This document shows positions 9,362 through 12,102 of a stretch of 64,000 nt of DNA, piece by piece. Position 1 is the stretch's first letter. The number at the start of each line of letters is the position of its first letter. Made by a program: the position numbers and the translations under genes. Origin of the DNA: Microbotryum violaceum (Eukaryota); NCBI GenBank assembly GCA_001244265.2, contig CDLV01000007.1, forward strand, positions 1,984,001 to 2,048,000, read 5' to 3'. The notes below the pieces were generated by a model. It was given only the letters and a program-made list of their open reading frames with translations, was not told the origin of the DNA and did no database searches.

Positions 9362-12102
9362 CAGGCCCCCGCCGCCACACCCGCTCCCGCCGTCAAGACG
9401 AGGACCCCACTAGTAAGGTCGGCGCACATGGACGTCTCATCCCCTCTTGATGATTCTGCCATGAGCGCCGTTGACGTGGCCCAGGGTACACTGGCGGATC
9501 CTTACTTAATTCTACAGATACCAGCCCCTCGTCGTCTCCGTCGCTCGCCCCGATTTCGTCTCCCGCCCCGTCCTCAGGGGGGGTACCGTCCATCGAGGAC
9601 TCGGATGATCCGCTTGACCTTCTGCACTCCGACACCGCGGTTCGCCTCCGCCTGATGGACGTACATCGATCGACGACGACACCCTGGTCACACCCACACC
9701 CGCTGTTGGCCCCGGGCAGCCCTCGACAACGACTCCCCTGATGAGATCGATTTCCTCTCTCGTCATCACCGCGCCTTCATCGCCACCGACGACGACGACC
9801 CCACCCTCGAAGCCATTCAGCCGGTCAAATCGATCACTAGCGACCCTCAGACCTGGCGTGAAGCAATGTCCAGCGACGAGCACGACCTCTGGGCTCAAGC
9901 CGCCTCCGACGAGTTCACCGCCATGCGCGACAATTTCAAGGTGTTCACCATCAAGCCTCGTTCCTCGGTACCACCGGGCGCCACCATCGTCACCTCCAAA
10001 TTCGTCTGGAAGACCAAGCGCAATGCACAGGGTGATATCACAGGGCGGAAGGCACGCCTTGTCGCGCAGGGTAACCGCCAGCGCGACGGCATTGACTTCT
10101 CAGAGACGTTTGCACCGTCGCCCGTTTCTCCTCCATTCGCTGCCTCCTCGCCCTTGCTGCTGCCAACGGCTATCACGTTCATCAGGCTGACATTGACAAG
10201 GCTTACCTTCACGGCGAGCTCGATCACGACATCTGGATGACGACGCCACGAGGTTTTGACTTCCAAGCGACCAGGTTCTCCGGCTGCGGCGCTCGATCTA
10301 CGGTCTTAAGCAGGCCGGTCGCATCTGGAATCGCCACATTGACACATCGCTCAGGAGTCTTGGGTACACGGCAACGGGCACTGATCACTGCATTTACTCT
10401 CGCGTTGATGATCAGAAGCAGCCCCATTATATCGCATTATATGTCGACGATCTCCTCATTGTCAGCCCCGCCCTCGACGAGATTGAGCGTGTCATCTCCG
10501 GCCTCGAACAGCAATACGGCGTCAAACGACTCGGCCCTGCAGAATACATCCTCGGCATCCAGATTCGACGCCTGGAAGACGGCTCCATTGCTTTATCTCA
10601 GGAGCGCTACATCATGAACGTGCTCGCCCGCTTTCACTTTGACACCACAACGCGCGGCGCTACGGTGCCAATGACGCCCGGCCTCTCGCTCACGGCAGTA
10701 CCGGGTCAGGGAACGGACCGCATTTGGTCGTGGTACCTGCAAGCCATCGGCTCCCTCCTATACATTTCACTCGGCACTTGCCCCGACATTGCCTTTGCCG
10801 TCTCGTACCTGTCCCGGTTTGCCAACAACCCGGCCGCCGCCATTGGGTCGCCGTCAAACACGTCCTTCGCTACCTTCGTGCTACGTACCGTGATGAGCTA
10901 CTCTACGCCTGCGGTCCAGCCAAGATTACAGGGGTGGTTGGCTATTCCGATGCAAACTGGGGTGCCTGCGTTGACACGTCAATCTCCACAATGGGCTTCG
11001 TCTTTTACTTGGCCGGCTCCGCTGTCTCTTGGTCATCGAAGCGTCAGACTCGGGTAGCAGATTCCACCACTGATGCCGAATACCTCGCCTTGTCGCACGC
11101 TGGTAAGGAGGCCATTTACCTCACACAACTCCTCTCGAGCTCCATGTTCGCCCAATCGATGCAGCCCACATCTTCACGGACAACGAGGCCGCGGCCGCCG
11201 TCGCCCACGACCCCGTTCGCACCTCCGGCACTCGGCACATCCGTCTCCGCGAGCACTTCGTCCGCGACATGGTCAACCAAGGCGATATATCCCTCTCCCA
11301 CGTTGGCACAGCGAACATGGTTGCGGACCTATTCACCAAAGCGCTAGGTCCCAAGATTTTTGGTACGCATTGCTATGCTCTGGGCCTCCGGACGCAACAC
11401 CCACAGCTCAAGTCTACCTCGCGTTTGCGTGGGGGGGGGTGTGAGGAATCCACTCTCCGCTCGGCTCAGGACTTAGGCGCGCAGAGCGAGCCTGGCGCAC
11501 CGGCCCAGGACTTAGGCGCGCACTTGCCTGGCGCACCGGCCCAGGACTTAGGCGCGCGGAGCGAGCCAGGCGCACACAGCCCCAGGACTTAGGCGCGCAG
11601 GGTGAGCCTGGGCCATTGGCTCAGCCCCAAGGTTCGCAGCCTGAGGACGTGAGGCGCGCGGCTCTCTTGTTGTTAGCTTCCTATTCATCACTCTTGGCTA
11701 TAACTACATTGCTGACGTAGTAGAGTTGATCGAATAGGTATGTTGTAATGATTCATCACTCTTGGCTATAACTACATTGCTGACGTAGTAGAGTGGATCG
11801 AATACCAGCGGACTCGGGCGCGCGCCCGCTAGGCCACCCCCTTGCGGTGGGGACTTAGGCGCGCGCGCCTGCCTTAGCGCGCTAGCAACTTCACCCGCGA
11901 CTGGGCCTATCTCAGCGCGGGTCCCCTTTCTGTTTCTTAGCTTCCCTCTCACCACTTCTGTTCAACATTCAACCTCTCCTGACAGTAGTGGTGATCGTCT
12001 CATAGGTATGCTGAAATAGACCACTTCTGTTCAACATTCAACCTCTCCTGACAGTAGTGGTGATCGTCTCATAGGTTATTCGCCCATCGACCTACCGCTG
12101 GC

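Follow-up and report, generated by a model that had tools for sequence, protein, structure and literature searches.

Concerted copies of a probable leader unit in the LTRs of Microbotryum copia elements, and a probable route for its renewal at strand transfer

We analysed a window of 64,000 nucleotides from Microbotryum violaceum (contig CDLV01000007.1, positions 1,984,001 to 2,048,000), of which the first ~45 kb form a nest of LTR retrotransposons, within a genome of 33.2 Mb in 20 contigs. The LTRs of one copia family, here called B, end in a 54-nt unit, a spacer starting with GT, the unit again and then the primer binding site (PBS), and the two copies of the unit change together. The doublet with its concerted copies is real and is taken as a variant of copia replication, by a mechanism that is probable. 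The reading favoured here, to which we assign a probability of roughly 70% based on sequence, is that the unit is the RNA leader of the element and that, at each cycle's first strand transfer, copy 1 serves as the template from which copy 2 is written anew, whereby an intron would be rebuilt.

Concerning the class of the elements, a Pfam profile search finds Pol_BBD, rve, SH3 and RVT_2 in copia order at 20730-24470. The copia gag-pol at 12064-16105 (+) matches Pol_BBD (Pol beta-barrel), SH3 and RVT_2, with several broken frames in this copy. The integrase lies ahead of RVT_2 in pol, as in Ty1/copia elements, and paired LTRs, target site duplications (TSDs), a polypurine tract (PPT) and a tRNA PBS are all present; TSD-matched pairs were found for 21 elements of family B and four of a second family, A. 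The TG..CA termini of that class are missing: the LTRs of A and B are TG..TA, which we read as variant termini because the TSDs sit directly after the TA. Instead of the PLE-type RT and GIY-YIG endonuclease of Penelope-like elements, RVT_2 and an rve integrase are present. The family-B LTR is ~380 bp long, starts with TGTGA behind a G-rich PPT, ends in TA and is flanked by a 5-bp TSD. The PBS (12074-12097, +) is complementary to the D-loop/anticodon arm of tRNA-Met(CAT), matching at 19 of 24 bases (an intron-containing tRNA-Met gene is present in locus L266); there are five mismatches, and the first 12 bases recur in most B copies. The order of beta-barrel protease region, integrase and RVT_2, the PPT, the 5-bp TSD and the anticodon-arm PBS are shared with Ty1/copia elements primed by an internal part of tRNA-Met, which we take to be the Drosophila copia and Ty5 type. 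Each family retains a mismatched PBS variant of its own, which suggests that the PBS is not recopied from the tRNA. Also, nearly every PBS-bearing LTR end listed in the genome reads AG/GTTAT, a latent acceptor.

The B element that carries the focal doublet is interrupted by another element. The 5' part (U3) of its 5' LTR lies at 980-1095 (+) and begins with the LTR start motif (a second LTR start is found at 942); it is truncated by a nested family-A copia element at 1096-11804 (+), which has its 5' LTR at 1096-1383 and its 3' LTR at 11440-11804 (the pair lying 10421 apart), the TSD CCAGC on both sides (1091-1095 on the left) and further insertions inside. The end of the A 3' LTR is itself a doublet (11684-11804, +), with copy 1 at 11684-11736, the spacer at 11737-11751 and copy 2 at 11752-11804. 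The A repeats 11684/11752 thus end a separate element inserted into the B 5' LTR, and the description of A and B repeats as parts of one long LTR has to be abandoned. The units of the two families are related, with identity in 35 of 59 aligned columns. The remaining B U3 (11810-11950, +) ends in a pyrimidine-rich tract just ahead of the predicted transcription start, where the tract may act in the promoter; by inspection, no TATA box is seen in the A or B LTRs. Copy 1 plus one G (11951-12005, +) is the predicted exon 1, or 5' leader of the RNA, the start site being placed at 11951 from the repeat edge and the junction hotspot described below. It is followed by a predicted 69-nt spliceosomal intron (12006-12074, +), with a GTATGC donor, a CTGAC branch-like motif at 12048-12052 and a terminal AG whose A closes the LTR and whose G opens the PBS. 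The base directly 5' of copy 2 (12019, +) is the predicted minus-strand transfer junction, or cap-G position, and copy 2 (12020-12073, +), which forms the LTR end, is where strong-stop DNA is predicted to land at the 3' end of the RNA. The unit had been labelled U5, which is too narrow: on the best reading it takes in the entire leader of the RNA, R as well as U5.

U2-type introns are recognised by consensus motifs, namely a GT donor, a branch motif and an AG acceptor, and in fungi by a short length. The corresponding signals here are a GTAYGC donor, CTGAC, TAG and a length of 69 nt, and the same layout is found in family A and in four further families, D-G. The donor positions are invariant over 116 spacers apart from a CpG T/C change. 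The acceptor site is uncertain because two nearer AGs follow the branch-like A, at 3 and 6 nt.

The observation at the root of this study was that four B haplotypes are each perfectly doubled within their own LTR, and all five B doublets of the window are indeed identical. Apart from 11951/12020, these are 9239/9308 in a solo LTR (8982-9361, +; TSD CAGGC), 8525/8456 in a 5' LTR followed by a PBS (8403-8701, -), 20051/19982 in an LTR inside a family-D unit (19929-20300, -; ACCAC on both flanks) and 27387/27456, the fourth haplotype, again followed by a PBS (27387-27509, +). Single-unit LTR ends are found at five places in the window: 16868, 33806 and 3816, and, of the subfamily B' type, 38673 and 237. 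Across the genome there are 232 unit-spacer-unit junctions, compared with none in the reversed control. The close study covered 876 kb picked around the listed junction matches, with 158 links inside. This sample contains 59 A arrays and 198 B arrays (56 single, 128 double, 12 triple, one of four and one of five units); 142 of the 198 are multi-unit, a share biased upward by the choice of sequence around junctions. The 128 B doublets were reduced to 117 by dropping one without left context, one interrupted and nine same-flank duplicates; five A doublets were dropped (two interrupted, three same-flank) and 37 kept.

Among these non-redundant doublets the copies are identical in 94 of 117 for B and 16 of 37 for A. 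Homogenisation remains after TCG/CGA columns are masked, as had been predicted, with identical copies in 108/117 B and 20/37 A doublets. The mean B distance is 0.26 within and 3.45 between LTRs (minimum of 5000 permutations: 2.41), and after masking 0.10 within and 1.78 between (minimum of 5000 permutations: 1.26). Identity within LTRs is therefore far beyond chance. The two positions do not form separate groups, also in agreement with the original prediction: masked between-LTR distances are 1.78 for copy 1 to copy 2, 1.74 for copy 1 to copy 1 and 1.82 for copy 2 to copy 2, grouping being judged by distances and haplotype counts rather than by a tree. The seven masked haplotypes that recur are each found at both positions, and those confined to one position, 11 in all, are singletons; this count outweighs the permutation figures, since related LTRs are not independent. 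Every doublet with one of nine non-CpG alleles has it in both copies, and for a tenth, 51T, this holds in 18 of 19 carriers, so that the effect reaches position 51 of 54. Subfamily B' differs from B at seven sites, and in B' doublets both copies carry the differences. The CpG-site allele 21G is confined to copy 2 in four doublets and to copy 1 in none. Allele 11C is found in the last copy only, in all three of its occurrences genome-wide and on different backgrounds; under strict re-templating it would be private to each element, and it needs either recurrence or inheritance via unspliced RNA.

When the copies become equal can be read from elements with both LTRs. In 20 TSD-paired B elements, copy-copy divergence is 6/2052 (0.29%) and 5'-3' U3 divergence 26/5115 (0.51%; p=0.25), one B pair having been skipped for want of a U3 and a few long-range pairings being perhaps chance TSD matches; in four A elements the values are 2.1% between copies and 1.2% between LTRs (p=0.22). 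The copies diverge no more than the two LTRs, and were therefore identical at insertion, which points to equalisation at a replication step; the pattern suggests that they then age like LTRs, although the differences in the test are few and compatible with slow conversion. In elements with two doublets, nine of ten copy differences are confined to one LTR, and the one common to both is at the junction base. Family-A copies had been said to differ at 1-4 sites; those of the window differ at 5, 3 and 1, and such imperfect copies fit older insertions plus junction changes. Other routes also act, since in 7 of 21 B pairs the number of units is unequal between the 5' and 3' LTRs; these routes probably include unspliced RNA and second transfers mediated by the unit. 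A related route was reportedly described for Ty1 by Lauermann and Boeke in 1997.

The predicted direction, from copy 1 to copy 2, is backed by a junction hotspot, the polarity of family D and apparently spliced copies at two outside loci. The base before copy 2 in the 117 B doublets is G in 104, A in six, C in five and T in two, on several haplotype backgrounds, and the base before copy 1 is C in all 117. Non-G bases before copy 2 (12/116) compared with changes before copy 1 (0/117) give p=1.7e-4, and the remaining 14 spacer positions vary in 10 of 1624 cells, seven of them at one CpG; the hotspot position is the 5' edge of the unit. The upstream base of copy 1 is found before copy 2 five times, while a G is found before none of 183 first units. 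In family A the same place holds G, GG, GA or GC, or is empty, and 5/37 doublets have a C>G confined to copy 2. Four arrays of D subfamily c carry 4 nt of the sequence upstream of copy 1 ahead of copy 2. No cap-G change precedes the unit in the 52 single LTRs (51 C, 1 A). In HIV-1, copying of the cap is described as adding a G immediately before the start site in ~5% of cycles, with misalignments at transfer (PMC12172438). We infer from the hotspot that strong-stop DNA ends at the first base of the unit and lands on copy 2.

Family D provides the polarity. Its links are of two kinds, a long one, in which an inner GTGAG..AG segment lies between direct repeats of 10-13 nt, and a short one without this segment. 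Among 105 D arrays, 29 are mixed, and in all 29 (23 non-redundant, from three subfamilies and of 14 types) the long link comes before the short one; triples are long-short in 27 cases and long-long in none. This is the product that would be expected when a leader lacking the inner intron lands on copy 2, and the polarity may partly reflect common descent. The 5' LTR end at 25150-25427 (-) illustrates the order, with three units, the inner intron-like segment in the first link and none in the second. Family-D LTR ends in the window (25150-25427, -; 19838-20491, -; 29908-30005, +) have a 63-nt unit in one to four copies. The last AG of the inner intron-like segment abuts the next GT, resembling a recursive splice site.

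The apparently spliced copies are found in metagenome loci L229 and L197, where copy 1 is split by a 48- or 52-nt GT..AG segment and copy 2 matches the precise join of the two parts, apart from a single substitution per locus. The only simple explanation of these second copies would be an RNA of copy 1 that had been spliced. No Pfam match was found in the 300-nt flank of either locus, and both are assigned to copia provisionally by the PBS alone. The LTR ends of six other loci (L169, L186, L199, L213, L214, L230) read CTGAG/GTATG; in L169, L186 and L230 a branch-like motif, an AG and a short exon follow before the PBS, with the second copy absent. These ends are possibly single-unit forms of the L229/L197 type.

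In the cycle that we propose, transcription would start at the first base of copy 1. At the 5' end of the RNA the intron, which consists of the spacer and copy 2, would be spliced out, leaving copy 1 and an intact PBS; by sequence this join is exact. The 3' end would retain U3, copy 1, the spacer and at least part of copy 2, and copy 2 sequence would be kept there because the final AG needs the first G of the PBS. Minus-strand strong-stop DNA of one unit would then anneal to copy 2 and extend via the spacer, copy 1 and U3, so that the new LTR would have two units, the second a copy of the parental copy 1, and the intron would be rebuilt. Landing on copy 1 would give a single-unit LTR, and an unspliced leader landing on copy 2 a triple. 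The model thus predicts a start at 11951, a lariat of 12006-12074 and poly(A) addition within or after copy 2. Single-unit LTRs have no spacer, and multi-unit forms persist in both A and B. Singles cannot regain the spacer alone, yet multi-unit forms dominate; this suggests that selection or biased transfer maintains them. A likely benefit would be a promoter-proximal intron that boosts RNA output in intron-dependent basidiomycetes.

The layout is not limited to A and B. Families D, E, F and G of the same genome have unrelated units of ~50-65 nt, in each of which the first copy ends exactly at AG/GT and a short tail lies ahead of the PBS; the periods of their short forms are 72-78, and single-unit forms are also found in D, E and F. 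In metagenomes, among the matches listed, an exon copy 49-63 nt after the GT is present in 12 of 119 candidate sites, compared with 2 of 1626 control searches, figures to be read knowing that the search pattern itself required GT and PBS, that some of the 12 sites are mutually related and that many of the at least 121 scan loci are not LTRs. A copia gag adjoins five of ten metagenome loci tested, one of them weakly. Of the 12 sites, four have a TATA box 34-40 nt upstream of copy 1 and four more have one 52-57 nt away; in the other four, none was found within 70 nt. The scan of viral contigs gave nine loci. Loci L117, L119, L133, L158 and L171, with ~30 similar ones, form a large family of copia type. 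Its intron-like segment, GTAAG..CTCAAC-AG, ends where the LTR meets the PBS, and no exon copy was found in the flank examined. Among the matches listed for four contig runs, three of which were RNA by guess only, there is no 68-69 nt joint and no loose end with poly(A); in contigs built from short words, a spliced leader would look the same as copy 2 followed by the PBS. One loose end (run X4, organism B) suggests that a relative carries a diverged doublet of A type. We lean, less firmly than for the main reading, towards a broader one: a widespread group of fungal copia elements would package spliced RNA and rebuild its leader intron at each jump, the strong-stop DNA landing on an exon copy that the intron contains. 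The base derived from the cap would pair only with the G before copy 2, which may bias transfer towards regeneration.

Several features would also arise without splicing, if transcription started at copy 1, reverse transcriptase slipped between the direct repeats or misaligned at transfer, turnover homogenised the copies and the splice-like signals were incidental or served translated mRNA only. Arrays of one to five units, the 7 of 21 pairs with unequal unit number and the three last-copy-only occurrences of 11C are in line with such slippage, which would also produce the hotspot before copy 2; in HIV-1, short direct repeats are described as sites of deletion and misalignment (PMC12172438). 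However, random slips should homogenise the 3' end of the unit poorly, yet 35T (4/4), 37T (15/15) and 51T are shared by both copies, and full-length unspliced transfer should place the hotspot before copy 1, where it is seen in 0/117. Slippage also leaves unexplained why repeats end exactly at AG/GT in six families, the exact intron loss in L229 and L197, and the lack of long-long triples in family D, although long-long homology is the longer. We consider this account unlikely. A start at copy 2, which would then be R-U5 with copy 1 as part of U3, is more doubtful still. It would give a cap-G hotspot before copy 2, and the likeness of the copies would be left to chromosomal gene conversion or unequal exchange; conversion between adjacent repeats can occur where repeats are densely clustered. 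On the other side, no greater likeness is detectable between the copies than between the LTRs of one element (on the few differences of that test), which gives no sign of conversion after insertion, edge sequence is exchanged only in the direction copy 1 to copy 2, the pyrimidine tract or TATA box sits before copy 1, and the spliced distal copies would have no explanation.

A one-off recent tandem duplication across AGGT in each lineage (intron birth of the Rogers type), or a repeat kept for an RNA hairpin, would dispense with recurrent re-templating. Duplication across AGGT can make a functional intron (PMC3265369), and the A and B units fold into hairpins from their first base. However, single-unit forms hold no spacer and so cannot re-make a doublet, and a homologous spacer is common to family A and to doublets of at least seven masked haplotypes, which largely refutes the idea; the independent divergence that follows a Rogers-type event is not seen either, the copies changing together across subfamilies. 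The hairpins are no better than those of shuffled sequences (z -1.57, -0.97, -0.46), so that the hairpin as the sole reason for the repeat finds no support in the shuffle test. We regard both variants as very improbable. The hairpins lie at 11951-11992 (B) and 11683-11735 (A), as a leader hairpin would, and the branch-like motif and both nearer AGs fall within the B stem. Least credible of all is an assembly or polishing artefact that merged neighbouring repeat copies. Homopolymer indels and broken frames do occur in the assembly, but rare haplotypes are found in all four copies of an element (e.g. 6A at C9:1084826 and C9:1089679), the copies do differ in 23/117 doublets, and the same concordance is present on independent metagenome contigs.

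Each step of the cycle proposed here relies on known chemistry, as far as it is set out in PMC6894440, PMC12172438 and PMC3265369; first strand transfer through R homology, for example, is described for LTR retrotransposons (PMC6894440). Compared with Ty1/copia elements, the leader is doubled with a GT spacer, the LTRs end in TA, and the second copy is apparently the transfer acceptor, one part of the LTR templating another. The HIV-1 U3-R junction resembles the present one in the G change directly upstream of the start and in small misalignments at minus-strand transfer (PMC12172438), but in the present LTRs it is the second of the two leader copies that has the hotspot in front of it, which would mark that copy as the landing site. 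Penelope-like elements also keep a short intron in the leader of a terminal repeat (PMC8557442). They belong to another class, and the account in PMC8557442, which terms the significance of intron retention unknown and calls it a peculiarity of these elements, mentions no exon copy inside the intron in the passages concerned. In split-intron retroviral vectors (Ismail et al. 2000, via PMC3182074), reverse transcription likewise assembles an intron by moving LTR sequence, the acceptor or donor being complete at one end only; those vectors are described as engineered, one-way and removing the packaging signal, whereas the layout here would be cyclic. Intron birth by AGGT duplication shares the arrangement unit-AG/GT...unit-AG/GT, in which splicing restores a single unit (PMC3265369), but is a one-time event followed by divergence; in the present families a unique spacer is kept and the copies are identical across subfamilies. 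Ogre and EVADE are LTR retrotransposons with spliceosomal introns. In the relevant parts of PMC12786077 these introns are internal, lie outside the LTR and make subgenomic RNAs, and no rebuilding is described for them; the same source terms introns of LTR elements rare and internal. Our literature search, of partial coverage with most subscription papers and supplements outside it, found no published account of the doubled-leader layout.

Intron loss through an RNA step is the classic proof of retrotransposition, and how some retroelements retain an intron is a question on which this layout may bear. Basidiomycete genes are reported often to need introns for mRNA accumulation (PMC3744415, PMC5124236), and an intronless retroelement should therefore be handicapped. 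If the reading is true, an intron rebuilt at strand transfer would reconcile loss through the RNA step with the need for an intron, using known chemistry, and would provide a per-cycle mechanism for the concerted evolution of a repeat; start sites and splicing would then be readable from genomic copies alone.

The distribution of the elements is clustered. On most contigs the A and B elements lie in one dense nested cluster, often within each other's LTRs (1-45000 of the window; C1:0.95-1.19 Mb, C2:1.04-1.14 Mb and C9:1.05-1.20 Mb), centromere-like by appearance. At the edge of the copia cluster in the window, an RVT_1 reverse transcriptase frame of another retroelement class is found at 43398-45350 (+). 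LTRs with the same flanks occur on different contig ends (C17:10296 and C8:1739212; C16:11725, C17:3728 and C8:1732663), as segmental copies or assembly overlaps. Finally, 20710-22520 and 30043-31853 are 100% identical over 1811 nt in inverted orientation, which suggests very recent transposition or conversion.
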